NCBI GenBank assembly: GCA_019348365.1
Contig: JAHWJO010000001.1
Coordinates: forward strand, 1-36,139
DNA length: 36,139 nt
Source: Armatimonadota bacterium
GTDB taxonomy: Bacteria; Armatimonadota; DTGP01; JAHWJO01
Direction of reading: 5' to 3'
A model generated the notes under the pieces. That model did not search any database, was not told the origin of the DNA, and worked only from the letters and a program-made list of their open reading frames with translations. Below, in pieces: positions 3,435 to 36,139 of this stretch (within the stretch, counting starts at the first letter, position 1; each line of letters opens with the position of its first letter). The translations under genes and the position numbers were made by a program.

Positions 3435-3437
<3 letters not shown>

Positions 3438-3703
3438 TGAATGGGACACGGAGCTTCGCTGCGCTCGCTACACGGAAACCCCAGGAAACCCCGGATACCC
3501 CCTGAACCCCTGACCAGATGACAAGATGAATGGGTGAGGGAGTTCATCTGCGTTCATCCGTGTTCATCTGTGATTCCATCGGGTTTTTTGTGGTCTTCGT
3601 GTCCTTCGTGTCCTTCATGGTTCAAAAGGGGTTCAGGGGGTATCCGGGGTTTCCTGGGGTTTCCGTGTAGCGAGCGCAGCGAAGCTCCGTGTCCCATTCA
3701 TCA
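3435..3703. repeat. very long perfect inverted repeat (arms 3435-3511 and 3627-3703) around a 115-nt centre carrying two tandem-repeat blocks
   Basis: By manual reverse-complementing, 3438-3510 equals the reverse complement of 3628-3700 with no mismatch, and the match extends to about 77 bp. The centre has gttcatc[t/c]g[c/t] x3 (3542-3571) and gtc(c)ttcgt-like x3 (3593-3618). The left arm starts at the ligA TGA. The right arm ends 6 nt before ATG 3710. Confidence 0.9.
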
Positions 3704-8572: not shown

Positions 8573-9429
8573 GCCGACGACAGGGATCGGGGATCAGGGA
8601 TCCGGGGTCGGGGGTCGGGGACCAGGAGCCAGGGGTCAGGGATCGGGGAAATCCCGGTGCTCTCCTGCGGCTGGAGAGTTGCACGCGGGCTTTCGGCGGT
8701 CTGGTGGCGATGAAGGACGTGGACCTGGAGGTTCATCCGGGGGAGCTGGTCGGCCTCATCGGGCCGAACGGGGCCGGGAAGACGACCGTGTTCAACGTCA
8801 TCACCGGCATTTACGAGCCGACCGCCGGGAAAGTCCTCTTCGACGGGAAGGACATCAGCGGGCGGAAACCCCATCAGGTCGCCAGGGCGGGCATCAGCCG
8901 CACCTTCCAGAACATCCGACTCTTCCGCGCGCTTTCGGTGATGGACAATGTACGGATCGCGCTGCACCTGCGGCACCGCCACTCGTTCCCGGCGGCGCTG
9001 TTCCGCACCCCCGGCGTCGCGAATGAGGACCGTGCCCAGACGGAAGAAGCCCACCGGCTGCTGGAGGCGCTGGACCTCGGACATTTGAGCGGGGAGGCGG
9101 CGGGGTCCCTGCCCTACGGCGAGCAGCGTCGGCTGGAGATCGCCCGCGCGCTGGCGACTCACCCCCAACTGCTGCTGCTCGACGAGCCCGCCGCCGGGAT
9201 GAACGATCAGGAGACGGACCGCCTGATGGAGATCATCCGGGAGATCCGCCGGGTATTCGGCGTGACGATCCTCCTGATCGAGCACGACATGGGGCTGGTG
9301 ATGGGCATCTGCGAGCGGATCTACGTCCTCGATTACGGCGAGGTGATCGCGGCGGGACTTCCCGAAGAGATCCGCGCCGATCCCAAAGTCATCGAAGCCT
9401 ACCTCGGCGTTGAAAATGATGAGTTATGA
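8569..9429 (+). CDS. livG: branched-chain amino acid ABC transporter ATP-binding protein LivG
   Basis: Walker A GPNGAGKTT, signature LPYGEQRRLEIARAL, Walker B LLLLDEPAAG. The only canonical in-frame start upstream of the conserved LLRLES... is GTG 8569, which overlaps the livM stop as GTGA. That start gives an N-terminal extension of about 25 aa encoded by the G-rich repeat, so the start is uncertain. Confidence 0.85.
   Translation: MSRRQGSGIRDPGSGVGDQEPGVRDRGNPGALLRLESCTRAFGGLVAMKDVDLEVHPGELVGLIGPNGAGKTTVFNVITGIYEPTAGKVLFDGKDISGRKPHQVARAGISRTFQNIRLFRALSVMDNVRIALHLRHRHSFPAALFRTPGVANEDRAQTEEAHRLLEALDLGHLSGEAAGSLPYGEQRRLEIARALATHPQLLLLDEPAAGMNDQETDRLMEIIREIRRVFGVTILLIEHDMGLVMGICERIYVLDYGEVIAAGLPEEIRADPKVIEAYLGVENDEL
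8573..8655 (+). repeat. G-rich degenerate tandem repeat (gggatcgg / ggggtcgg / ggggtcagg units)
   Basis: Read directly: gatcggggatcagggatccggggtcgggggtcggggaccaggagccaggggtcagggatcgggg. It has many GGG/GGGG tracts on the sense strand. I found no reverse-complement partner. Confidence 0.75.
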
Positions 9430-10223: not shown

Positions 10224-10228
10224 GAGAT

Positions 10229-10347
10229 GTGTGGGTGTGTGGGTGGATGGATGAGGTCCTTCTACAGCCGGATTGAACAGGCACAATTCAGATGTATTCT
10301 CAAGAGGAAACGGCTCCGGACTCATCCACACACCCACACACCCACAC
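10229..10347. repeat. inverted repeat with tandem-octamer arms (gtgtgggt units / acccacac units)
   Basis: Left arm gtgtgggtgtgtgggtggatggatgag (10229-10255) against right arm ctcatccacacacccacacacccacac (10321-10347). 25 of 27 positions are complementary by hand alignment. It starts 5 nt after the livF stop. Confidence 0.85.
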
Positions 10348-10368
10348 AATTATCAGAATTCCGCCGCT

Positions 10369-11670: not shown

Positions 11671-12510
11671 TCAATCCCGGCTGAGAGCCGCCTGTTCCGC
11701 TTCCACCTGGCAGTTACAGTCCCTCTCCGTCCCCAACCGCCCGATTACGCGGAGAATCAGATCCCGCACGCGTTCCGTGTTGTCGTGCATCACCTTCATG
11801 ACTTCCTCGACGTTGACCGGGGGCCGCAAGAGGTCCCCGGCCACCCCCACGTCGTAATCGGTGACGAGCGCGATTCCGGCGTAGCAGATCCCCAGCTCCT
11901 TCGCGAGGATCGCTTCCGGGTACTGAGTCATGCCGACGGTGTGCCAGCTCATCTTCGTGTAGAATTCGCTCTCCGCCCGCGTGGAGAAGCGCGGCCCCTG
12001 AATCACGACCATCGTGCCGGCGGGGTGAATCCTCCCCTCCCCCTCCCCGGCAGCGGAAAGCACGGCCTCTCTCAGCCGGGGGCAGTAGGGTTCCGCCGCG
12101 CTGATGTGATGGGTGACCGGCCCGTCGAAGAAGGTGTCGCTTCGGCCCCGCGTGCGGTCCACGAACTGGTCGAGGAGGACGAAATCGCCGGGGTGGATGT
12201 CGGGCTGGAGGCTCCCGCAGGCGCAGGGGGCGAGGATCTGCCGGACTCCCAGCGCGTACATGGCCCAGAGGTTGGCGCGGTAGTTCACCGCATGGGCCGG
12301 GTGGGAGTGGTCCCTGCCGTGCCGGGGGAGGAACGCCAGCGTCTGCCCGTTCACCTCCGCCAGCGCGATCCGGTCGCTGGGGGGGCCGTAGGGGGTCTCT
12401 ATCCGGGTTTCGCGGACGTTGTCGAGGAAGCGGTAGAATCCGGACCCTCCGAAGACGCCGAGGGTGGCGCGGGGTTCGTCGGAGCTGCCGGGGAAGAGGG
12501 AATTGGGCAT
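11671..12510 (-). CDS. mtnP: S-methyl-5'-thioadenosine phosphorylase
   Basis: 279 aa. PNP/MTAP family: GVFGGSGFY, LPRHGRDHSHPAHAVNYRANLWA, PRFSTRAES. ATG 12510 is the only canonical start upstream of the conserved GGSG. Confidence 0.9.
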   Translation of the reverse strand: MPNSLFPGSSDEPRATLGVFGGSGFYRFLDNVRETRIETPYGPPSDRIALAEVNGQTLAFLPRHGRDHSHPAHAVNYRANLWAMYALGVRQILAPCACGSLQPDIHPGDFVLLDQFVDRTRGRSDTFFDGPVTHHISAAEPYCPRLREAVLSAAGEGEGRIHPAGTMVVIQGPRFSTRAESEFYTKMSWHTVGMTQYPEAILAKELGICYAGIALVTDYDVGVAGDLLRPPVNVEEVMKVMHDNTERVRDLILRVIGRLGTERDCNCQVEAEQAALSRD

Positions 12511-13202
12511 GAGATGAGTCCTTCCAGCGCGCGTTCGGCGGCTTGCTGCTCGGCGAACTTTTTGGAATGGCCCTTCCCGGTCCCCAGCACCTTTCCCTGA
12601 AGGACGGCTTCCGCATGGAAGGCGCGATTGTGGGGCGGGCCGGATTCGCCGCTGATCCGGTAGGTCGGGGTGGCGCGGAAACGCTCCTGCGTGTACTCCT
12701 GGAGGCGGCTCTTGAAGTCGCGCTCGCGCACTTCGCCGAGGGTGCCCATCTGCTCCAGCACGAACCTCCGCGCCTCCTCCAGCCCCAGGCTCAGGTACAC
12801 CGCCGCCACCACCGCCTCGAACGCATCGGAGAGGAGGGAGGGGCGGTCCCGCCCGCCGGACGCCTCCTCGCCCCGCGACATGTACATCAGATTGCCCAGT
12901 CCCATGCTTCGGGCGACTTCCGCCAGGGAAGGCTCGGAAACGGCGTCCACGCGCGCGCGGGTCAGCTGGCCCTCGCTGAAGTTCGGGAAATGGCGGAACA
13001 GGTACTCGGTGACGATGATCTCCAGGACCGCATCCCCCAGGAATTCCAGCCGCTCGTTATCGTATCCTGCATCCGCCGACTTGTGCGTGAGGGCCTGTTG
13101 CAGCAGCTGCGGGTCCACGGCGTAGCCGGGCAGCACCTCCTCCGGAGAGGCGGACCGGGGCGCACGTTTGCGTTTGGAGCGGAGCCACTTCAGCATAGGC
13201 AT
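12399..13202 (-). CDS. rnc: ribonuclease III
   Basis: Signature NERLEFLGDAVLE. A dsRBD follows (GPPHNRAFHAEAVLQGKVLGTGKGHSKKFAEQQAAERAL). A C-terminal P/S/A-rich tail of about 37 aa overlaps the mtnP start. Confidence 0.9.
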   Translation of the reverse strand: MPMLKWLRSKRKRAPRSASPEEVLPGYAVDPQLLQQALTHKSADAGYDNERLEFLGDAVLEIIVTEYLFRHFPNFSEGQLTRARVDAVSEPSLAEVARSMGLGNLMYMSRGEEASGGRDRPSLLSDAFEAVVAAVYLSLGLEEARRFVLEQMGTLGEVRERDFKSRLQEYTQERFRATPTYRISGESGPPHNRAFHAEAVLQGKVLGTGKGHSKKFAEQQAAERALEGLISCPIPSSPAAPTNPAPPSASSEGPDSTASSTTSAKPG

Positions 13203-13206
13203 TCAT

Positions 13207-13337
13207 GTTGGGTCGTTGGGTCGTGCCCTTCCCTATTCGGGTGTGCAAAGGGTTTACCGGCCCGGATCATGGATGGAAATACGGGCGTTTAGGAGCGACT
13301 CCCCCCACGACCCCATCACCCAACGACCCAATCACCC
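13207..13337. repeat. gggtcgtt-armed inverted-repeat element, copy 1 (conserved core ccctattcgggtgtgcaa ... cgggcgtttag)
   Basis: Left arm gttgggtcgttgggtcgtg, right arm cacgaccccatcacccaacgacccaatcaccc. Core blocks at 13231-13248 and 13282-13292 are identical to those at 35340-35357 and 35391-35401. It fills the whole gap between the FMN reductase stop and the rnc start. Confidence 0.9.
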
Positions 13338-13971: not shown

Positions 13972-14108
13972 AAATTGGGGAGTTGGGAAATTGGGAAATT
14001 GGGGAGTCGGGTATCTCCGATCCGTTTGCTCTGGCTTCGGAGTAGATTCTATTTCACCCCGATGTTTGGGGCGGCACAACTTCCCAATTTCCCAACTCCC
14101 CAATTTCC
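13972..14108. repeat. inverted repeat with ttggg(g/a)a-type tandem arms
   Basis: 13972-13997 (aaattggggagttgggaaattgggaa) is the perfect reverse complement of 14081-14106. The element occupies the aspC-stop to FMN-reductase-start gap. Confidence 0.9.
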
Positions 14109-15322
14109 TAAGTTCCAACGACTTCCGCGAGGGCATCGCAGATGTAGCCGATGTTGCGCTCGTTCATGGCCGCGACGCACATCCGGCTGCTGTCGGTCAT
14201 GTAGAGTCCGTACCGGTCCCGCAATTGCCGCACGTCCTCCAGCGGCAGCCCCGCGAAGGAGAACATCCCCTTCTGCCGCTCGATGAAGCTGAAATCCCGC
14301 TTCACGCCCTTCTCCCGAAGGGTTTCCACGAACAGATGGCGCATCTCCTGAATCCGGTTGCGCATCCCCGCCAGCTCCTCTTCCCACCGGGCGCGGAGGG
14401 CGGGATCGGAGAGGACAAGGGCGACGACCTGCGCCCCATGAGAGGGCGGGTTGGAGTAGTTCGTGCGGATCGTGCGCTTCACCTGGCTGAGGACGCGCTC
14501 GGCTTCCTCCCGGCTCGTCGTGATGAAGGAGAGCGCCCCCACCCGCTCCCGGTACAGCGAGAACGACTTCGAGAACGAGGAGGAGATGAGGCAGGGGATC
14601 TCCGCCTCCGCAAACGCGCGGACCGCGAACGCATCCGGCTCGATCCCTTCCCCGAATCCCTGGTAGGCGAAATCGATGAACGGGATCAGATCGGATGTGC
14701 GGAAGATCTCCACCATTTCCCGCCACTGGTCCCGCGAGAGGTCCACCCCGGACGGGTTGTGGCAGCAGACGTGCAGCAGGACGATGCTCTGTGAAGGCAG
14801 GCCCCGGATCGTCCGCTTCATCCCCTCGAAATCCAGGTCATGGGTCTCCGGGTTGTAATAAGGGTAGGACTCCGTCCGGAACCCCGCCGCCTCGAAGAGG
14901 GCGCAATGGTTCTCCCAGGTGGGGCTGCTCACCCACACCGTCGATTCCGGGTAGTACTTCTTCAGGAAATCCGCCCCCACGCGCAGCGCGCCCGTCCCTC
15001 CCGGCGCCTGCACCGTCACCACGCGCCCGTCGTTCAGGAGGAGGGAATCGGGGCCGAGGAGCAGCTTCTGCACTTCGGTGATGTAGGACGGCGGGCCGAC
15101 CTGCGAGAGGTACGATTTCGTCTCCTCCCGGTCGTGCCACCGCTCTTCCGCCTCGCGGACGACGTTCAGCACCGGGACCTTCCCCGATTCGTCCTGGTAG
15201 ACCCCCACACCGAGATTGACCTTCTCCGGGCGAGGATCGGCGTTGTAGGCTTCCGTCAGACCCAGGATCGGGTCGGCGGGGGCGAGCGGAACGTCGGCAA
15301 ACGGCGAGGGTGAGGCAGACAT
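14108..15322 (-). CDS. aspC: aspartate/aromatic amino acid aminotransferase (class I, AspC/TyrB type)
   Basis: 404 aa, collinear with E. coli AspC as I recall it: APADPILGL, NLGVGVY, GGTGALR, CCHNPSG, FAYQGFG, the PLP-lysine motif SFSKSFSLYRERVG, and YSNPPSHGA. Confidence 0.92.
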   Translation of the reverse strand: MSASPSPFADVPLAPADPILGLTEAYNADPRPEKVNLGVGVYQDESGKVPVLNVVREAEERWHDREETKSYLSQVGPPSYITEVQKLLLGPDSLLLNDGRVVTVQAPGGTGALRVGADFLKKYYPESTVWVSSPTWENHCALFEAAGFRTESYPYYNPETHDLDFEGMKRTIRGLPSQSIVLLHVCCHNPSGVDLSRDQWREMVEIFRTSDLIPFIDFAYQGFGEGIEPDAFAVRAFAEAEIPCLISSSFSKSFSLYRERVGALSFITTSREEAERVLSQVKRTIRTNYSNPPSHGAQVVALVLSDPALRARWEEELAGMRNRIQEMRHLFVETLREKGVKRDFSFIERQKGMFSFAGLPLEDVRQLRDRYGLYMTDSSRMCVAAMNERNIGYICDALAEVVGT

Positions 15323-20760: not shown

Positions 20761-20769
20761 ACCCAGATC

Positions 20770-20906
20770 GTTGAGCTTTGAGCTTTGAGCTTTGAGCGTT
20801 GAGCTTTGAAAACGACAGCCCTGCCCGTTTTGTCACAGGGACGCTCGGAAATTCACCAGAAAAATATCGCCGCCGTACTCAACGCTAAACGCCCAATGCT
20901 CAACGC
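20770..20906. repeat. inverted repeat with heptamer tandem arm (ttgagc[t/g] x5) and a degenerate gctcaacgc partner arm
   Basis: Tandem at 20771-20805. The right side ctcaacgctaaacgcccaatgctcaacgc (20878-20906) carries two reverse-complement copies. It occupies the permease-stop to queD-like-start gap. Confidence 0.8.
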
Positions 20907-20909
20907 CCG

Positions 20910-21740
20910 ATGCCAAAAACAATGATCGTCTATCTCACCCGGCAGGCCCGGTTTTCGGCGGGCCATCGATATTTTCATCCGGAGTGGACCGAGGAGGAGA
21001 ACCTTCGCCGGTTCGGTTCCTGCGCGCGTCCGCACGGCCACGGCCACGATTACCTGGTGGAAGCGACGGTCAGGGGGCCGCTCGATGCGCCGGTGGGGAT
21101 GGTCATCAACATCACCGAATTGAAAGCGGCCCTGCAATCGGCGCTGGAGCCGCTGGACGGGCATTTCCTGGACCGCCGCCACCCGCTCATGAACGACCGG
21201 AACCCGACGACGGAGACGCTCGCCCGGTACGTCTGGTCTGCGCTGGAGGGTCGATGGGAGACCTGTTTCCCCCATAATGTCCGTATTTATGAGAACCCAA
21301 CGCTCTGGAGCGATTACAGAGGGGAGGAATCCGTCGTGTATCTCACCCGCCGGTACGAGTTCAGCGCGGCCCACCGGCTGCACAGCCCCGTCTTATCGGA
21401 CGAGGAAAACCGGGAGGTCTTCGGCAAGTGCAACCACCCGAACGGCCACGGGCACAACTACGGCCTGGAAGTCACCGTTTCCGGGGAGGCGGACCCTGAT
21501 ACCGGCATGGTGATGGACCTGACCCGGCTGGATGAAGTCGTGCATCGGCAGGTGGTGGACCGGATGGATCACCGGCACCTCAATTACGACCTGCCGGAGT
21601 TCGAGGCGCTGAATCCCACGTCGGAGAACCTGGCCGTCGTGGCCTGGAGCCTGCTGAAGCCGGAGCTGGGCGACTCTCTCGTGAAGGTCGGTATTCGGGA
21701 GACGGATCGGAACTACTTTGAGTTCGGCGGGGAAGAATAA
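20910..21740 (+). CDS. two-module 6-pyruvoyl-tetrahydropterin / 6-carboxy-tetrahydropterin synthase family protein (tandem PTPS/QueD domains)
   Basis: Both halves carry the family hallmarks. Half 1 has FSAGHRYF and CARPHGHGHDY. Half 2 has FSAAHRLH and CNHPNGHGHNY. Each half also has the downstream D..LN/LD, T.E.LA..W and final E. ATG 20922 is an alternative start. Confidence 0.85.
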   Translation: MPKTMIVYLTRQARFSAGHRYFHPEWTEEENLRRFGSCARPHGHGHDYLVEATVRGPLDAPVGMVINITELKAALQSALEPLDGHFLDRRHPLMNDRNPTTETLARYVWSALEGRWETCFPHNVRIYENPTLWSDYRGEESVVYLTRRYEFSAAHRLHSPVLSDEENREVFGKCNHPNGHGHNYGLEVTVSGEADPDTGMVMDLTRLDEVVHRQVVDRMDHRHLNYDLPEFEALNPTSENLAVVAWSLLKPELGDSLVKVGIRETDRNYFEFGGEE

Positions 21741-25854: not shown

Positions 25855-26156
25855 AGAAAAATCCTGAACGGTTGTGAACGATAATAAACGGTGAGGGAAG
25901 GACGAGCTGCCGGGAGGGGCTACCTCATGGATTCGGCGCGCGGCCTTTCCATGCCTCCTCGCCTGTGGCTGATCCATCGTTGATCGGCAGAGATGCTGCC
26001 TGCCTGCGGCGAGAGTTCAACAGCAGAAAACTTGGGTGTGAAATGCGGGACGAGTCCGGCGGTTGAAACTGCGCCTGGAGGGGCACGAAGTCCACCTTCG
26101 CGGATCCCCTCCGGAATCTCTGATAGATAGAGTAGGATAGAACTTACGAAGGGGCT

Positions 26157-26381
26157 CCCTTCCATGTCCTTCCGACTCCCTCCCCTGTATTCCGATTCTC
26201 TTTCCTGTCATTCCGAACGGAGTGAGGAATCCGACACCGAAGACGAAATGCTCTCTCCCGTAAGAAAGACTCTCTGATGGGCCGATAGACTTTCTCCCGT
26301 ACGGTCAGATCCCTCGCATACGATCGGGATGACAAGAGAGCACTGATTCGGGATGAAGGTCAAGTCGCCGGAGGGCGACTT
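26157..26381. repeat. palindromic intergenic repeat, copy 2 of the gtcattccga...tcgggatgac family, plus hairpin aagtcgcc-ggag-ggcgactt
   Basis: Shares cttccatgtc.ttccgactccc, ctgtcattccga, gaggaatc.gac, ctctcccgta and gtcagatccctcgc....tcgggatgaca with 1088..1208. The extra hairpin is at 26362-26381. Confidence 0.8.
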
Positions 26382-28900: not shown

Positions 28901-30199
28901 ATGCTGCGAAGGCTCTTTATACTGGGACTCCTATTGGCTCAAGGGTTATCCTGGGGCTGTCTGAACGACCGGGATTCGCTGGAGATGGAGGCGGATAGAT
29001 TCCCGGATACGGCGAAGGTCATCACCGGGCACTTCGAGCGGAATCCGCCGCTCTACTATGAGATGCGCCTGAATCGGGTCGCCGCCGAAAATGGCGCGCA
29101 CCCGGACCGCCTCGCCGCCTACGACGATGCCGGCGTGGCCGCCGACCGGCTGGGACGCTCGGCGGAGGGCATCCGGTGGATGGAGGCGAAGCGGGAACAC
29201 CTGGAGCGCATCGATCCGAAGCAGGTCTCCCAGAAAGAGCACTGGTACCGCTACTACGCGAACGTCGGCACGTTCCGGGTCCACCGCTGGCTGAAGGAAG
29301 GGGCGGACCGGAGCCGGCTGGCCGAGGTCAAGCGGGCCCGGAATGAGATCGCCCGCGCCATCGAGATCAAGCCCGACGCGCACTTCGGGCGGGAAAAGTA
29401 CCAGCTCGACGCGATGAACTGGATCCTCTACCCCGGCAAGCTGAACGGCAAGCCCGAACCGTTTGCTGCCTACCTCTACCGGAAACGGATCCAGCCGTTA
29501 CAGGGAGACAGCGATGCCCGATCAGAAGCGACGGATGCGGCGATCAAAGGGCTGTCCGGCCTGATCGTGATGGGGAACGCGTGGGAGAGCGTCGATATTT
29601 TCCATGCACTCTCCGCGATGCTGGATAGCAAGGGACTGGGTTCGCTGGCACACCTGGCCCGTCTGCGCCAGGAAGAGTTGATCCGTCGTGGACGGAAGCC
29701 CCTCTATGCCGCCGCCGATCTGGATGCACCCATCGGCAGGAGGGATGGAGTCAGCCCCCGCGAGAAGGCGAGGGTGGAGAAAGATTACCGTCGCCTCCGG
29801 GAACGGGCGGATGCGTGGCAGGAACGCCGGGCCGGTGCCATGCTCTCCCGGCTCCGCTCCGGCAGTCACCCGGACACGGACCGCGCCTTCTGGGACGGCG
29901 TGGAGGAGAAGAATCCGCCCGAGCTCGCTTTCACCCGGCGATACGGCGCGTACATCCCTTACATTCTCATGCTCCTCGTCATTCTCATCCCGCTGATCCT
30001 GATCGCGGCCCTCTTCTGTAAGTTGTGCTGGAAGGCGGCGAAAGTCATCGCTCTTCCGCTGAAGGAAAGGTACTCGCGGGGAAAGACGAGACGGCTACAA
30101 GAGGAGAGGATACCCCCCCCGGCAGAGGCGGAACCTCTCCCGGAATACCTGGCTGTTTGCGAGGACCGCGAGCAGGAGAAAGTGGAAGCCCTACATTAG
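28901..30199 (+). CDS. hypothetical lipoprotein-like protein with a C-terminal transmembrane helix
   Basis: ATG 28901 gives MLRRLFILGLLLAQGLSWGC (signal plus Cys). Long helical Arg/Glu-rich body. TM segment YIPYILMLLVILIPLILIAALF near the C-terminus, followed by a charged tail. No family recognised. Confidence 0.6.
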   Translation: MLRRLFILGLLLAQGLSWGCLNDRDSLEMEADRFPDTAKVITGHFERNPPLYYEMRLNRVAAENGAHPDRLAAYDDAGVAADRLGRSAEGIRWMEAKREHLERIDPKQVSQKEHWYRYYANVGTFRVHRWLKEGADRSRLAEVKRARNEIARAIEIKPDAHFGREKYQLDAMNWILYPGKLNGKPEPFAAYLYRKRIQPLQGDSDARSEATDAAIKGLSGLIVMGNAWESVDIFHALSAMLDSKGLGSLAHLARLRQEELIRRGRKPLYAAADLDAPIGRRDGVSPREKARVEKDYRRLRERADAWQERRAGAMLSRLRSGSHPDTDRAFWDGVEEKNPPELAFTRRYGAYIPYILMLLVILIPLILIAALFCKLCWKAAKVIALPLKERYSRGKTRRLQEERIPPPAEAEPLPEYLAVCEDREQEKVEALH

Positions 30200-32791
30200 G
30201 TTCATCGGGTCCACGTCGATGACCATGCTCTGCCGGACCGCGCGGTCCAGCCCCTCGACCGCCGGGCGCAGGACCTTGTTCATCGTGCGGAGGTCCGGGG
30301 CCTTCAGCACCAGATGCCACCGGTACTTCCCCTTGATCCGCTCCATCGGCGCGGCGGCGGGGCCAAGGACCGTCACCTTCGACTCCTCCCGCTCGATCTC
30401 CCGCTTCAACGCCTCGGCGATCTCGCCCGCGCGCTCCTTCGCCGTCTCCCGCGAGGGGTCGGAGATGACGAGGTTCGCCAGCCGGGAGAACGGCGGGTAG
30501 TTCAATCCCCCCTCCCGCCGGTGCTCGATCTCCTGCGCGTAGAAACTCGCATAGTCATGCTGGGCGGCGGCCTGGAGGCTGTAATGCTCCGGATTGAAGG
30601 TCTGCACGATGACCTCTCCAAGCAGGCTCCCCCGCCCCGCGCGCCCCGCGACCTGCGCGATGAGCCCGAAGCTCCGCTCCGCCGCCCGGAAGTCGGGGAG
30701 GTTGAGTGCGGTGTCCGCCGCGATGACCCCCACGAGCGTCACGCGGGGGAAGTCGAGCCCTTTCGCCACCATCTGCGTCCCGATGAGGATATCGGCCTCG
30801 CCCTGCCGGAACGCCGCCAGCAGCTCGTGGTGGGAGCCTTTGCGGGAGGTGGTGTCGCGGTCCATCCGCAGCAGCCGCGCGTCGGGGAAGAGGCGGCGGC
30901 ACTCCTCTTCCAGCTTCTCCGTCCCCAGCCCGAAGTGCCGGATGCGCTCGCTCTCGCACTTCGGGCATTTCGTGGGGGCGCGGCGGCGGTGGTCGCAGTG
31001 GTGGCACTGGAGGAGCCGCTGCTCGTGGTGGTAGGTAAGGGTGACGCTGCAATTCGGGCACATCGCGGTGTAGCCGCAGTCCCGGCAGAGGACGAACGTG
31101 GCGTACCCGCGCCGGTTGAGGAAGAGGATCGCCTGTTCCCTGTTCCGCAGCCGCTCCTCCATCCGCTCGGCCAGCTCCTCCGAGAAGATCTGGGGCGTGC
31201 CCTCCGGAGCGCGCAGGTCGATGATCCGCACCTCCGGCAGCGGGCGGTTGTCGATGCGGGTGGGCATCTCCAGGAGCTTTAAAATCTCCTGCTCCGCCCA
31301 GTAGTAGGTCTCCACCGAGGGGGTCGCGCTGCCGAGGACGAGTACGCCGCCGTCGAGCTGCGCCCGCCGCGCCGCCACGTCGCGGGTGTGGTAGCGGGGT
31401 GTGCTCTCCTGCTTGTAAGAGGTCTCGTGCTCCTCGTCGAGGATGACGAGGCCGATCTTCTTCAGGGGCGCAAAGACCGCGCTCCGCGCCCCCACGACGA
31501 CTGCCGCTTCGCCGCGCTGGATGCGCATCCACTCGTCGTACCGCTCGCCGTCCGAGAGGGCGGAGTGCAGCACCGCCACCCGCGCCCCGAACCGGCTTCG
31601 CACCGTGTCCATCATCTGCGCCGTCAGCGAGATCTCCGGCACAAGGAGCAACCCCTGCCGGCCCGACGCGGCGCAGGCTTCCAGGGCGTGAAGGTACACC
31701 TCCGTCTTGCCGCTCGCGGTGACGCCGTGCAGCAGGAATCGCTCCCCGCCGGGTACTTTCAGCGCCTTCGTGATGGCGTTCAGCGCCCTCTTCTGCTCCA
31801 TGTTGAGAGTAACAGGCTGCTTCAAGCCTTCACTCTTGCCTGTTGCCTGTTGCCTGTTGCCTGAAGTAAACGGATCTCGCCCGATGGCGACCTCCTCCGA
31901 GACTAGGAGGCCTTTCTTCTCCAGCGCGGTGAAGACCGCCGGGGTCAGGCCGAGTCGCTGCTGGAGGTCGGTCTGGAGGACGGGTTCGGTGGCGTTGACG
32001 AGGGACGCGACGACGGTGGCTTGTTTCGCGGAGAGCCCCGCGAAGTCCCCGCGCCACGATCCTGCGAGCCGCCATGCCTTCCGAAGCTTCGGCTTCATCT
32101 TCGGGGGCTTGAGGACGTACCGCTCCTCCACCACGCCCCGCTCCTTCAGCTTCTTGAGGAGGGCGAGGGGCTGGGGCGTCCGTTCCGTGCGGAGGGCGGA
32201 TGGGGTGGCGTGGCCGCCCAGCTCCCGCAGCCGCTCAGCGACGGCGCGCTGTCCGGGGGGAAGGACGCTCAACTCCACGTTCGGGCGGAGCTGGAAGCCG
32301 CGCTTCACCTGCGCGGTGATCGCCTCCGGCACGATACAGCGCAGGCTGTCGCGGGGGGTGCAGTGATACCGCTCGGCCATCCACCGGGCCAGCTCCCACT
32401 GCCGCTCATCGAAGAACGGCTCGGCTTCCAGCACGTCCACGATCTCTTTGAGGGTGTCGGGTCGTTGGGTCGTTGGGTCGTTGGGTGAGGGGATCGTTGG
32501 GTCGTTGTGTCGTTGGGTGAGGGGGACCAATTCGTTGGAACTGGACGGGGAGGTTGAGGGGAGGGGGCTGCCGACTTCCTCCCCGACTTCCGACTGCCCC
32601 TCCCAACGACCCAACGACCCAACGACCCCGCCACCCACCACGAAGCCGAGGAGCGTTTGCCCTCCGAACGGGACCACCACGGCGGACCCAACGGGAGGGA
32701 CGGGCAGGGGTTCCGGGACCCGGTATGTGAAGGGGTGACGAAGGTCGGAGACCTCGGCATCCACCACAACGGCAATAAGACGGTCATTCAC
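30191..32791 (-). CDS. priA: primosomal protein N' (replication restart helicase PriA)
   Basis: Walker A GVTASGKTEVY, DEEH box, Cys-rich zinc region CRDCGYTAMCPNCSVTLTYHHEQRLLQCHHCDHRRRAPTKCPKCES, and the N-terminal 3'-DNA-binding-domain pattern VVPFGGQTLLGFVV...LKEIVDVL. Start set to GTG 32791 (VNDRLIAVVVDA); ATG 32902 is the alternative. Confidence 0.92.
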   Translation of the reverse strand: MNDRLIAVVVDAEVSDLRHPFTYRVPEPLPVPPVGSAVVVPFGGQTLLGFVVGGGVVGSLGRWEGQSEVGEEVGSPLPSTSPSSSNELVPLTQRHNDPTIPSPNDPTTQRPDTLKEIVDVLEAEPFFDERQWELARWMAERYHCTPRDSLRCIVPEAITAQVKRGFQLRPNVELSVLPPGQRAVAERLRELGGHATPSALRTERTPQPLALLKKLKERGVVEERYVLKPPKMKPKLRKAWRLAGSWRGDFAGLSAKQATVVASLVNATEPVLQTDLQQRLGLTPAVFTALEKKGLLVSEEVAIGRDPFTSGNRQQATGKSEGLKQPVTLNMEQKRALNAITKALKVPGGERFLLHGVTASGKTEVYLHALEACAASGRQGLLLVPEISLTAQMMDTVRSRFGARVAVLHSALSDGERYDEWMRIQRGEAAVVVGARSAVFAPLKKIGLVILDEEHETSYKQESTPRYHTRDVAARRAQLDGGVLVLGSATPSVETYYWAEQEILKLLEMPTRIDNRPLPEVRIIDLRAPEGTPQIFSEELAERMEERLRNREQAILFLNRRGYATFVLCRDCGYTAMCPNCSVTLTYHHEQRLLQCHHCDHRRRAPTKCPKCESERIRHFGLGTEKLEEECRRLFPDARLLRMDRDTTSRKGSHHELLAAFRQGEADILIGTQMVAKGLDFPRVTLVGVIAADTALNLPDFRAAERSFGLIAQVAGRAGRGSLLGEVIVQTFNPEHYSLQAAAQHDYASFYAQEIEHRREGGLNYPPFSRLANLVISDPSRETAKERAGEIAEALKREIEREESKVTVLGPAAAPMERIKGKYRWHLVLKAPDLRTMNKVLRPAVEGLDRAVRQSMVIDVDPMNLM
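32459..32629. repeat. gggtcgtt-armed inverted-repeat element lying in frame inside priA
   Basis: Eight consecutive 8-nt units (gggtcgtt x3, gggtgagg, ggatcgtt, gggtcgtt, gtgtcgtt, gggtgagg) at 32459-32522. Three aacgaccc units at 32605-32628. Total span is 171 nt (57 codons). Confidence 0.85.
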
Positions 32792-32915
32792 ACCCTTATT
32801 ATGCCATGTGGGACCGGATTCACAGAGGGGATCGGGAGGAAGTGACGATGGTGGAGATCCCCTGCTATAGAGGCACGCCAGAGGAGGCCGCCTGGCTCTC
32901 AACTCCCCATCGAAT

Positions 32916-34214
32916 TTATTTCAGATAGGCCATCCAGTCCGACTGCGCCGACATCATCTCCTCGAACATACCCTCGATCTCCGGCAGGGAGCAGACGGCG
33001 GACGTGAGCGGGTCGAGCGCGAGGGCGTAGTACGCTTTCCGGCGGTCCTCCTCCAGCACCGCTTCGACGGTCATCTGCTGCACGGCGATGTTCGAGCGGT
33101 TGAGCCCCGCCAGCTGTCCCGGCAGCTCCCCGACCACGCAGGGGTGGACCCCCGTGTTGTCCACGAGGCACGGCACCTCCACGCAGCACCCTTCCGGCAG
33201 GTTGTCGATCAGCCCCCGGTTCGGCACGTTGCCGTTGAACCGGAACGGCTCGCCCGTGACGGACGAATGGATGATGTGGGAGGCGTACTCGTGCGAGCCT
33301 TTCAGGTTGATCGGCTCCTCCCCGGCGGCCTGTCTCAGCAGGGGCGAATCCTCCTTGCTCCAGCGCGTGACGGGCTCCGGGTTCGGCTCCTTGAACTCCA
33401 GACCCAGCGGCTCCATGATGTCGGGCCGCTTGCGGAAGTACGGGACGTACTCCGACATATGCCGCGTCGACTCGGTGACGAAATAATCGAAGTGGCGGAA
33501 CATCTCGAAGCGGACCGTATCTTTGGCGTAGATCTCCGGGTCCTCCATCGCCTGGCGAAGCAGGGGGTACGCATCCTCACCGTTCCATTTGAAGTCGAGG
33601 AACCAGGACATGTGGTTGATCCCGGCCACCCAGTAGGCGATCTCCTCCGGCGGCGCGCCGATATACCCCGCGAGCTGCTTCGAGGTGCCCTGAACGCTGT
33701 GGCAGAGGCCTACCGTCTTGATCGAGGTCGCTTTATCGATGGCCCAGCAGAGGGTCGCCATCGGGTTGGTGTAGTTGATCATCAGGGCGCCGGGGCAGAG
33801 TTCTTCCATGTCGCGGGCAATCGCCAGCAGCTCCGGTGCGACCCGCAGGGTACGGAAAATGCCCCCCGGCGCGAGGGTGTCCGCCACCGACTGGTCCACA
33901 CCGTATTTCTTGGGGATCATCTTATCGGCGTGGAAGAGCGGGCCGCTGTAGGCGGGTCCCCCAACGGCGATGGAGACGATGACGAAGTCGCTGCCCTCCA
34001 TCACGGCCCGCCGGTCGGTGTCGGAGAGGATTTTCGCGCCGGTCCCGTGAAGCTCCACGACGCGCCGGGCGTACCGGGTCGCGGGCTCCAGGTGGTCCGG
34101 GTTGATGTCCACCAGCGCGATGGTACTCTCTCGCAACTCCGGGTAGGACATGATATCGACGAGCAGGCGCTGGCAGAAAAAGCTTCCCGCCCCGATCATC
34201 GTGATTTTCGCCAC
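32916..34214 (-). CDS. glycoside hydrolase family 4 (NAD/Mn-dependent alpha-glucosidase/alpha-galactosidase, AglA/MelA-like)
   Basis: KITMIGAGSFF Rossmann N-terminus, NYTNPM and GLCHS motifs. GTG 34214 chosen because AGGAGG lies 7 nt upstream. Confidence 0.88.
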   Translation of the reverse strand: MAKITMIGAGSFFCQRLLVDIMSYPELRESTIALVDINPDHLEPATRYARRVVELHGTGAKILSDTDRRAVMEGSDFVIVSIAVGGPAYSGPLFHADKMIPKKYGVDQSVADTLAPGGIFRTLRVAPELLAIARDMEELCPGALMINYTNPMATLCWAIDKATSIKTVGLCHSVQGTSKQLAGYIGAPPEEIAYWVAGINHMSWFLDFKWNGEDAYPLLRQAMEDPEIYAKDTVRFEMFRHFDYFVTESTRHMSEYVPYFRKRPDIMEPLGLEFKEPNPEPVTRWSKEDSPLLRQAAGEEPINLKGSHEYASHIIHSSVTGEPFRFNGNVPNRGLIDNLPEGCCVEVPCLVDNTGVHPCVVGELPGQLAGLNRSNIAVQQMTVEAVLEEDRRKAYYALALDPLTSAVCSLPEIEGMFEEMMSAQSDWMAYLK

Positions 34215-34433: not shown

Positions 34434-35294
34434 ATGTACCGCTGTTTGAGTCCGGGAGCCATCGGCGTGAAGGCCGACCTGGAAGAGGGGCTTCGGCTGG
34501 CGAAGCTGGGAGGCTTTGGGGGGCTGGAGGTCGGGATCGGCGACATCGCCAGGCGAATCGATGAACAGGGGCAAAGCGCCGTGCTGGACCTCTTCCGGGA
34601 AGCGGAGATCCTGCCGGGCGCGTGGGGCCTGCCGGTGGACTGGCGCACCCCCGACGAATCCAAATTCGAGGCCGACCTGGAGAAGCTGCCCCGACTCGCC
34701 GCCGCCGGGGCCGCCATCGGCTGCACCCGCACCGCGACCTGGTTCATGTCGTTCTCGGACGAGCGGAATTACGAAGAGAACACCGAATGGCACGTTCGCC
34801 GGTTCTCCCCCATCGCCCGGATCCTGGCGGACCACGGCTGCTCGCTGGGGCTGGAATTCCTCGGGCCGAAGACGATCTACGACGGGCACCACTACGAGTT
34901 CGTCCACGATATGAACGCCGCGCTGGACCTCGCCGGGCGGATCGGGCCGAACGTGGGCCTCCTCCTCGACTGCTGGCACTGGTATCACGCCGAGAACACC
35001 ACCGGGGACATCCGGAAGACCTCCCCGGACAAGATCGTTTACGTCCACGTCAACGATGCGCCCGCTGGACGCCCGAAAGAGGAGATGAAGGACAGCCCCC
35101 GATGCCTGCCGGGAGAGACGGGCGTCATCGACATCACGGCGTTCCTCCAGGCGCTCCAGGAGATCGGTTACGACGGGCCGGTCACGCCGGAGCCGTTCAG
35201 CGAGACGCTGAAGAACACCGATTCGCAGGAAGAGAAGGTGCGGATCACCGGCGCATCCATGAAGAAGATCTGGCGACAGGCGGGATTGAGCTAA
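34434..35294 (+). CDS. sugar phosphate isomerase/epimerase (xylose isomerase-like TIM barrel)
   Basis: ATG 34434 preceded by AGGAG (34423-34427). Family-typical pattern ...LGLEFLGP...LLDCWHWY...VHVNDA...PGETGVID...GYDGPVTPEPF. Confidence 0.82.
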   Translation: MYRCLSPGAIGVKADLEEGLRLAKLGGFGGLEVGIGDIARRIDEQGQSAVLDLFREAEILPGAWGLPVDWRTPDESKFEADLEKLPRLAAAGAAIGCTRTATWFMSFSDERNYEENTEWHVRRFSPIARILADHGCSLGLEFLGPKTIYDGHHYEFVHDMNAALDLAGRIGPNVGLLLDCWHWYHAENTTGDIRKTSPDKIVYVHVNDAPAGRPKEEMKDSPRCLPGETGVIDITAFLQALQEIGYDGPVTPEPFSETLKNTDSQEEKVRITGASMKKIWRQAGLS

Positions 35295-35445
35295 GGGTCG
35301 TTGGGTCGTTGGGTCGTTGGGTCGTTGGAAAGTGCCCTCCCCTATTCGGGTGTGCAAGGGGCGTACGCTCTTGGAGTATAGACGAAAATGCGGGCGTTTA
35401 GCACTGACTCCCCAACGACCCCATCACCCGACGACCCAACGACCC
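35295..35445. repeat. gggtcgtt-armed inverted-repeat element, copy 2 (same family as 13207..13337)
   Basis: Left arm gggtcgtt x4 (35295-35328). Right arm ccaacgaccccatcacccgacgacccaacgaccc (35412-35445). 30 of 34 positions complementary. Shares the two conserved core blocks with copy 1. It fills the whole gap between two convergent stops. Confidence 0.9.
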
Positions 35446-36139
35446 CTACGAGCGAGGTACCGGCTTCAGGTCTCCGCTCTTGACCATGGCTTCCAGCGGG
35501 TTGTCCTCGATGTCGAGCGGGAAATCGACGCGCCCTCGGCGGCGGCTGCTCTCGTAGGCGCCGAAAATAATCTCCGTTGCGATGAGCGCGTTGCTCACGT
35601 CGAGCTGGCACTTGCGGCCCTCCTGAAGGCACGAGATCGCGTCCGCTATAGCTGCCGAAATCTGGTTCTCGTCGGGACCCAGTTCCGGCACGATCCACTC
35701 CTTCGATCCGGCGGGAAGGTAGCGGAGGTCCGGCCCTCCGCTGGGATAGACCTCGATCAGGCCGTTCGTTCCGATCAGTCGCGTGAAGCAGCCGACGGGC
35801 TTGTTGCCCCCCGCTCCCGACGCGATCAGCCCGAACACCCCGTTCTCGTACTCGGTCATCACCAGCGCCTGATTTTCAACGTGCCCGCCGAAGACGACGT
35901 TCTCCCTCCGGTAGTCGATCTGAGCCAGCACCCATTTCGCGGGGGTTTCATGGTTGTAGAAGCTCAACATGTCGATGGAGTGCGTCCCGAATTCGTAGAT
36001 GTTCGGGGCTTCGGACTCCAGCCGTATCAGGTCGCCGATCTCCCCCGCGTCCAGCAGCTGCTTCGCCGTCTTCCACGCCACGCCATACCGGCGCTGGTGG
36101 TTGAATGTCAGCTGCGTCCCCGATTCTTTCGCGGCGGCG
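35446..36139 (-). CDS. Gfo/Idh/MocA family oxidoreductase (C-terminal part; 5' end beyond the window)
   Basis: The frame stays open from 36081 to the window edge (...AAAKESGTQLTFNHQRRYGVAWKTAKQLLDAGEIGDL...). That is the typical junction between the Rossmann domain and the C-terminal domain of this family. Confidence 0.8.
   Translation of the reverse strand, partial: AAAKESGTQLTFNHQRRYGVAWKTAKQLLDAGEIGDLIRLESEAPNIYEFGTHSIDMLSFYNHETPAKWVLAQIDYRRENVVFGGHVENQALVMTEYENGVFGLIASGAGGNKPVGCFTRLIGTNGLIEVYPSGGPDLRYLPAGSKEWIVPELGPDENQISAAIADAISCLQEGRKCQLDVSNALIATEIIFGAYESSRRRGRVDFPLDIEDNPLEAMVKSGDLKPVPRS

Follow-up and report, generated by a model that had tools for sequence, protein, structure and literature searches.

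How does a hairpin-forming repeat come to lie inside the coding sequence of a replication-restart helicase, and what becomes of it there? The question is raised by a stretch of 36,139 nt from a soil bacterium of the phylum Armatimonadota (contig JAHWJO010000001.1 of assembly GCA_019348365.1), here called the window, in which priA, the gene for primosomal protein N′, contains an inverted-repeat element with arms of tandem octamers. An original prediction, made from the letters of the window, held that this element had entered priA, or grown within it, and was tolerated as a surface loop. The comparisons reported below make it probable that the segment is a copy of a dispersed hairpin repeat, carried by priA as a tolerated and translated passenger insertion and not as an adaptation. 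That priA is essential in this organism is an assumption.

The repeat element within priA

Judged by its domains, the host protein is PriA, the replication-restart helicase. All of the PriA Pfam domains are present (PriA_3primeBD PF17764, DEAD PF00270, Helicase_C PF00271, Zn_ribbon_PriA PF18319 and PriA_C PF18074), comprising the N-terminal 3′-DNA-binding domain, an SF2 helicase core with a Cys-rich zinc ribbon, and the C-terminal domain, and the solved PDB structures of E. coli and Klebsiella PriA match the protein with E-values of about 1e-130. The longest open reading frame (ORF) through the element occupies positions 30191–32902 of the minus strand.

The element is 57 codons long and free of stops in the priA frame, its length being divisible by three. 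These values, the coordinates and the translation of the 61-residue loop agreed exactly with the original prediction when rechecked. On the plus strand, the left arm (32459–32522) consists of GGGTCGTT three times, then GGGTGAGG, GGATCGTT, GGGTCGTT, GTGTCGTT and GGGTGAGG. Tandem Repeats Finder describes it both as 2.0 copies of a 32-nt period (96% matches) and as 7.5 copies of an 8-nt period, and the right arm (32602–32628) as 3.4 copies of CCCAACGA with 100% matches; the arrangement proposed earlier, of eight GGGTCGTT-type octamers, a G/C-rich centre and three AACGACCC octamers, is borne out. The arms form an inverted repeat of 32 nt that is 94% complementary, with 106 nt between, and a weaker 33-nt version reaches out to 32454 and 32641. 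The outer layout is (GGGTCGTT)n-GGGTGAGGGGG ... GCCCCTCCC-(AACGACCC)3. On the mRNA, the left arm is read as AACGACCC-type codons (...LTQRHNDPTIPSPNDPTTQRP), while the right arm becomes the G-rich 5′ arm, with at least four G-tracts, and is read as GVVGSLGRW. Three CCGACTT/AAGTCGG heptamers occur in the core; in JBBROJ01, a related metagenome-assembled genome (MAG), this unit ranks second in abundance among short repeats.

The octamer arms are open in all six reading frames (GGG TCG TTG GGT CGT TGG GTC GTT / AAC GAC CCA ACG ACC CAA CGA CCC) and translate to GSLGRWVV or NDPTTQRP. A predicted tryptic peptide of the window PriA is HNDPTIPSPNDPTTQRPDTLK. With up to two mismatches allowed, the 16-mer GGGTCGTTGGGTCGTT has 12 occurrences in the window, where shuffled sequences lead one to expect 0.03, and is confined to three places (13207–13337, 32459–32628 and 35295–35445). 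This search confirmed the earlier statement that the priA arms are the same as those of the intergenic elements beginning at 13207 and 35295.

The element was compared with other PriA proteins in an alignment of 94 sequences from a protein search, the window protein included. Between the GFVV strand and the LKxI motif the window PriA has 61 residues, against 9–17 (mode 13) in all 93 others, so no relative has an equally long loop. In E. coli PriA (PDB chain 8fak_H), VV46–47 is followed by the 12 residues SVSDASELPLNE and then by LKAV (L60, K61), and the loop length of about 12 given in the original prediction was therefore correct. The closest relatives, none of which has the insert, are P0002 (73% identity, 814 aa), P0003 (69%, 818 aa) and P0004 (69%, 799 aa); at the DNA level the window is about 150 bases longer than P0002 and P0003 at this point. 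In the protein, the insert stops two residues short of the conserved Lys of LKxI. Together, these comparisons support a lineage-specific insertion in a variable surface loop of the N-terminal 3′-DNA-binding domain. Another Armatimonadota PriA, P0026 (about 45–50% identical), holds an in-frame element of 108 nt (L120:2463-2570) with perfect 28-nt inverted arms, CCCCCCCCGCCCCCAATTCTGGGGGAGC; its site differs from that of the window insert, being after the RecA-like domain 1 region, and the PriA of P0040 has a different sequence at this place.

An AlphaFold2 model built on the same alignment has a mean predicted local distance difference test (pLDDT) score of 86.7 and a predicted template modelling score of 0.87. 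The pLDDT falls below 50 in only two segments, residues 64–103 (the centre of the insert) and 314–322, and is 85–95 in the flanking strands of the 3′-DNA-binding domain, suggesting that the insert protrudes, disordered, from a domain that is itself intact. The loop location advanced in the original prediction is supported by this model. The second low-scoring segment corresponds to a further repeat-derived insert in priA, a TTGCCTG array, where the linker is 20 aa long compared with 10–13 in the 93 relatives, an addition of about nine residues.

In the priA mRNA the arms are predicted to pair in a stem of about 30 bp, somewhat longer than the 24 bp estimated originally, with a minimum free energy of −113.6 kcal/mol for 211 nt (z = −6.1 relative to shuffled sequences). 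ViennaRNA with its G-quadruplex option forms a G-quadruplex from the isolated G-rich arm, and prefers the hairpin once both arms are present.

Table 1. Positions of the priA element, its component parts and associated features of the window.
Feature	Position	Strand	Description
priA coding sequence	30191..32791	-	GTG start at 32791; 866 aa; host gene of the element
Tandem-armed inverted-repeat element	32459..32629		171 nt, in frame; PriA residues 55-111
G-rich arm	32459..32522	+	eight GGGTCGTT-type octamers, a 32-nt block x2
Core	32523..32601		79 nt, G/C-rich, with small stems of its own (fold, sequence)
C-rich arm	32602..32629	+	AACGACCC x3
Second repeat-derived insert in priA	31836..31863	-	TTGCCTG x4 (Tandem Repeats Finder), read ...NRQQATGKSEG...
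Intergenic sister element	13207..13337		same octamer arms; from FMN-reductase stop codon to start of RNase III gene
Intergenic sister element	35295..35445		arms of GGGTCGTT x4; whole gap between stop codons of two convergent genes
RNase III gene	12399..13202		

A repeat family in the window and in related genomes

There are seven tandem-armed inverted repeats in the 36 kb of the window, three with GGGTCGTT arms and the others built from 7–9-nt units (CGGAAACCC, TGTGTGGG, AAATTGGG and TTGAGCT). Six of the seven lie in short intergenic gaps, several of these beginning or ending a few bases away from a start or stop codon, and the priA copy is the exception. The density of arrays with a period of 7–9 nt is 2–5 per 10 kb, both in the window and in MAGs rich in repeats; the contigs that encode the two nearest PriA relatives had neither these nor tandem-armed inverted repeats.

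The wider family was sought with the 22-mer arm GGGTCGTTGGGTCGTTGGGTCG in one genome per species, which gave at least 117 stretches. Most of those listed were in JBBROJ01 (Chthonomonadales; at least about 33), DASXUI01 (Armatimonadota; at least about 22) and JBKJZI01 (Chthonomonadales; at least 8), all MAGs. Among the matches listed, there are also two Anaerolineales MAGs and a scatter in other phyla, and the genome of the window itself is not among them. The commonest array length in all three related MAGs is 3–4 units, a figure to be read with the search pattern in mind, as this itself demanded nearly three. The paired copies of DASXUI01 are nested palindromes, in which (GGGTCGTT)n is followed by GGGGAGGGGCCTCAGAGGG, an inner hairpin (in many cases built from short tandem units of other kinds), CCCTCTGAGGCCCCTCCCC and (AACGACCC)n. 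Paired elements in the related MAGs have in common the arms plus GGGGAGGGGC...GCCCCTCCCC, and the priA copy shares their layout, with arms followed by a GGGGAGGGG/CCCCTCCCC inner stem. Because of this inner stem and the AAGTCGG-type heptamers, another origin considered for the core, namely that it is a remnant of the native loop, was rejected.

Many GGGTCGTT/AACGACCC arrays of the related MAGs lie within long ORFs. In ten cases from related Chthonomonadales MAGs (L017, L029, L078, L063, L099, L036, L031, L075, L106 and L087) an in-frame array has Pfam domains on both sides. They are found in UvrA, between the interaction and DNA-binding domains; at two sites in an Lhr-type helicase; in methionyl-tRNA synthetase, in the linker ahead of the tRNA-binding domain; at the same site inside PSD1 in two PSCyt2/PSD1 proteins; and in a GH2 mannosidase, a DnaJ protein and an ADP-ribosylglycohydrolase fusion. 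The closest parallel to priA is a 1255-aa ORF (L087) that carries a full hairpin element of 141 nt in frame. The insertion in priA is not a singular event, in view of the second insert in the same gene and the many in-frame copies in related genomes.

The single arrays within domain-verified proteins have a preferred orientation: in 10 of 11 it is AACGACCC that stands on the coding strand, giving NDPTTQRP whatever the frame (one-sided binomial p of about 0.006, by our own arithmetic), and the hydrophobic GSLGRWVV reading is rare. Such a bias suggests that the peptide is under selection. Further peptides encoded in frame by those proteins (NPQSAIR, IQNPKSK and GRRTTDD, for example) come from 7-nt arrays read in three frames. 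A search of 5.8 billion proteins with (NDPTTQRP)x6 returned 408 word-sharing candidates and two matches, a count that is probably limited by low-complexity filtering.

These observations bear on whether the insert is of use to the cell, either as a cis-regulatory mRNA structure (a G-quadruplex, a site for RNase III or a brake on translation) or by giving PriA a new disordered loop beside its 3′-end binding pocket. The very stable predicted stem, the G-quadruplex potential, the presence of an RNase III gene in the window and the closeness of the insert to the conserved Lys of LKxI would all suit such a role, and the orientation bias shows that the peptide is visible to selection. However, the insert is absent from all 93 other PriA proteins; its loop is predicted to be disordered; and the same repeats are scattered over unrelated proteins and intergenic gaps, as would be expected of a passenger. 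A useful insert is, on balance, distinctly unlikely.

Alternatively, the segment might be an intervening sequence, akin to an intron or intein, that is removed before the mature protein is formed; only its hairpin shape speaks for this. No family was matched in an Rfam scan of the whole window, and no intein (Hint) or intron domain is among the Pfam matches of PriA, making removal unlikely. The 57 residues are also far below the size of an intein, and the in-frame occurrence, in many proteins, of single-arm arrays that have no hairpin partner indicates that read-through is the rule. Removal is accordingly the most improbable of the explanations considered, and can hardly be credited.

Several other repeats were seen in the window and beyond. 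The sister elements at 13207 and 35295 have a common core (13226–13305 and 35329–35410), sharing the sequences CCCTATTCGGGTGTGCAA... and ...GCGGGCGTTTAG..., and an element in a different MAG (L091:4263-4378) partly matches these cores (GCGGGCGTTTGAGCA). Such a conserved core might represent a small RNA or serve as a binding site. The inverted repeat at the second of these elements, taken at its full extent (35292–35448), takes in both stop codons of the convergent gene pair (TAAGGG... / ...CCCCTA), so that both would sit in the hairpin stem. A palindrome of 269 nt at 3435–3703 has perfect arms of 77 nt that contain CGGAAACCC-type tandem units, and its ends overlap the stop codon of ligA (3435–3437) on one side and the opening codons of the ORF that follows (3689-) on the other; the perfection of the arms suggests very recent formation or active homogenisation. 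The tandem-armed inverted repeats at 10228–10348, 13972–14114 and 20769–20918 (units TGTGTGGG, AAATTGGG and TTGAGCT) each fill a short intergenic gap; their like architecture and unlike sequences imply many small families or a local process that makes hairpins. A 21-nt unit, CTCCCTTCC[A/C]TGTCATTCC.., is present in 2–3 tandem copies at two distant intergenic sites (1083–1125 and 26155–26216). Long GGGTCGTT arrays were also noted in unrelated phyla, in Anaerolineales (L005, L026, L071 and L082), Solirubrobacterales (L056, an array of 270 nt), Acidobacteriota (L010) and Haloferula (L007), as well as at L068 and L067, and chance among many octamers, horizontal spread and a shared generating mechanism are candidate causes.

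Read support, and the probable arrival and retention of the segment

Independent support for the locus comes from Logan contigs of a soil-metagenome run (X1), which match the window at 100% over 31669–32507 and 32600–33000, at depths of 3.8x and 6.8x, each stopping within an arm. As both junctions between priA and the arms are reproduced at 100%, some hairpin element is certainly located within priA.

A number of observations weigh against the explanation preferred here and are given in this and the following two paragraphs. The 92-nt stretch 32508–32599 was in no public read-derived contig and had no exact match in metagenome contigs of JGI, and for the exact sequence and length of the core the assembly of the window is the only source. 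Of the six frames, three or more stay open through the entire element, and for this reason openness in frame says little for the correctness of the assembly. In an assembly artefact, the arms would truly flank priA sequence while a wrong or collapsed core had been joined between them, and the locus would in reality be two strain variants, an insert that breaks the frame or a nested palindrome of greater length. In favour of this, the X1 contigs stop at 32507 and resume at 32600 with unequal depths, the arms recur at many loci, and contigs of X1 join the same arms through other cores. Set against such an artefact are the confirmed position of both inverted arms next to the priA flanks, the assembled length (divisible by three, with no stop in the priA frame), the family inner stem and typical heptamer units within the core, and the comparable complete element in frame in the L087 protein; moreover, the gap between the contigs can be explained by low depth and the poor sequencing of hairpins. 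An assembly artefact is therefore judged unlikely.

How the segment arrived is also less than straightforward. When the 57 codons of the element are taken away, the window loop is left with four residues (GG..DT), against nine or more in every relative, which indicates that the native loop was partly lost or overwritten and that the insertion was not clean. No PriA relative of more than 73% identity was present in the databases searched, and no empty-site allele was found, the arm joints in X1 deriving from other loci with the same arms. The claim that the element entered priA and was tolerated as a loop stands in respect of its absence from 93 PriA proteins and the low pLDDT of the insert, but not as a simple addition to an unaltered loop. 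Furthermore, the three tiny RNA runs from the same study contained no matching words, so that retention of the segment in mRNA was not seen in them.

Mobility as a unit is unproven, given that the cores differ between most copies: they are locus-specific, being common only to the elements at 13207 and 35295 and, in part, to that of L091. No target-site duplication was detected beside the priA copy, nor beside any of 15 further paired copies (the fuzzy edges of the arrays could hide short ones), and the genes of the window, which are housekeeping only, include no transposase or other mobilising gene. The locus-specific cores would also be expected if slippage of native codons had expanded the loop in place, with nothing imported and a merely convergent likeness to the intergenic elements. 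Slippage is evidently at work, as shown by the 32-nt duplication in the arm, and the second insert of priA is a pure heptamer array. Against growth in place, the window has the identical arm unit at three loci and other genomes have it at dozens, inverted arms with the family inner stem are not produced by slippage alone, and no octamer seed is seen in the loops of the relatives; we regard it as very unlikely.

The preferred explanation remains a dispersed hairpin repeat tolerated as a passenger. The arms of its family are tandem G-rich octamers, (GGGTCGTT)n / (AACGACCC)n, and the usual place of such elements in this lineage is short intergenic gaps. A copy from another locus could have reached priA by recombination or transposition, and the segment would be kept in the mRNA and translated as a disordered loop of about 57 residues, rich in Pro, Ser, Thr and Gly, leaving the domain fold intact. 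Such tolerance would be possible because the arms are stop-free in six frames, the length is divisible by three and the surface loop is of variable length. Each octamer shifts the frame by 2, and the gain or loss of one or two units could restore it; as 171 − 32 = 139 is not divisible by three, the 32-nt duplication in the arm may have reset the frame. Likely side effects would be that the stem of about 30 bp, or a G-quadruplex, slows ribosomes on the priA mRNA or attracts RNase III.

A broader and more tentative proposal, which we consider possible but doubtful, is that a branch of Armatimonadota, Chthonomonadales and their relatives, carries an undescribed class of G-rich repeats with a period of 7–8 nt, spreading as arrays and nested hairpins into intergenic gaps and, within core proteins such as PriA, UvrA, Lhr, methionyl-tRNA synthetase and DnaJ, into linkers and loops. 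Since the units are stop-free and their period is not divisible by three, slippage of units could rescue the frame after insertion into a gene, an idea that can be tested. If the proposal is true, these repeats would be unusually good at colonising essential genes and creating disordered protein segments, and a dedicated copying mechanism would explain the recurrence of GGGTCGTT at hundreds of sites, even in other phyla.

Read as a tolerated passenger insertion, the priA locus would be a case of a selfish family of short repeats rewriting a surface loop of a replication-restart protein, as recurs in other core proteins of related genomes. It would mean that free-living bacteria can gain disordered protein segments from intergenic repeats, which has so far been documented mainly in Rickettsia and, with other repeats, in Borg elements. 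There is a practical warning for assembly and annotation as well: hairpins of this type interrupt assemblies made from short reads, and they may be misread as frameshifts or gene fusions.

Comparison with known repeat systems

An in-frame element in PriA is uncommon, with precedents. REP, BIME and REPIN sequences are imperfect palindromes of 20–40 nt that have a GTAG/CGTC head and are linked to a RAYT transposase. This class was rejected for the priA element, as its arms are tandem octamers lacking the GTAG/CGTC head and no Y1 transposase (RAYT) is found among the genes of the window. The short tandemly repeated repetitive (STRR) heptamers of cyanobacteria form genome-wide arrays of several unit sequences, mostly intergenic. 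A literature search on these heptamers found nothing relevant, and another, on repeats of Armatimonadetes and Chthonomonas, found no description of elements like those of the window.

[quoted passage not shown] It differs from them in the absence of flanking direct repeats, both at the priA copy and at 15 paired copies, and in having neither a common core (most cores are unrelated) nor a cognate transposase among the window genes. The Correia (NEMIS) elements of Neisseria are, as is generally known and has been reviewed (PMC10969869), small, with terminal inverted repeats and many copies, co-transcribed with their neighbours and possible targets of RNase III, all of which has a likeness here. 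The terminal repeats of the priA family are, in contrast, tandem arrays with a variable number of units.

Borg elements and the priA family both add disordered segments to proteins. The repeat units of Borgs inside genes are reportedly multiples of three, while those found here are of 7–8 nt, occur as inverted pairs, and would keep the frame through unit number or compensation. As described for Borgs (PMC9879509), the repeats are direct, in tandem, rapidly arising, and located in intergenic as well as coding sequence, where they add disordered protein segments.

Two systems come closer. Rickettsia palindromic elements are dispersed palindromic repeats of about 100–170 nt that lie in frame in housekeeping genes and are translated in a manner compatible with the fold (PMC10969869). 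Like them, and like intragenic MITE-like repeats (ERIC, BOX and QMITE1 of Coxiella), the priA family shows in-frame, fold-compatible insertion, with recurrence in UvrA, Lhr and methionyl-tRNA synthetase. The priA element is likewise a palindromic repeat in frame within an ORF, and presumably translated. The likeness is one of behaviour only, as the host belongs to Armatimonadota and a sequence relationship to the ten families of Rickettsia elements is not expected. Copies of the Rickettsia elements share a conserved internal sequence and peptide, whereas in the priA family only the octamer arms and the short inner stem are common, and many of the in-frame copies are bare arrays without a hairpin partner.

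The second system is the GGGNATC heptamer repeats of Xanthomonas and Nostoc, present at about 185 per genome, mostly with four units, 89–93% intergenic and near the ends of ORFs (Rehm et al. 2015, PMC4692102). Each Xanthomonas genome has 70–75 convergent pairs that form inverted repeats, and in the intragenic minority the coding strand tends not to be the G-rich one (PMC4692102). Similarly, the priA family consists of tandem 6–9-nt units with G-tracts, typically 3–4 per array, dispersed (three loci in 36 kb, and dozens per related MAG), mostly intergenic near ORF ends and arranged in convergent pairs, as in the seven tandem-armed inverted pairs of the window. Its unit, however, is the octamer GGGTCGTT, which departs from the GGGNATC consensus, and its palindromes are nested, with inner stems, in an Armatimonadota host. 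An array that is of GGGNATC type is located separately at 8581–8649, where about ten CAGGGAT/CGGGGAT heptamers directly follow a permease gene, upstream of an ABC ATPase domain. In the priA arm the G-quadruplex is predicted only, unlike that of the GGGNATC repeats. A complete convergent pair lies in frame inside a protein domain here, and none is described in PMC4692102. By its sequence, the priA element belongs to neither the Rickettsia nor the GGGNATC family; it combines two known phenomena.

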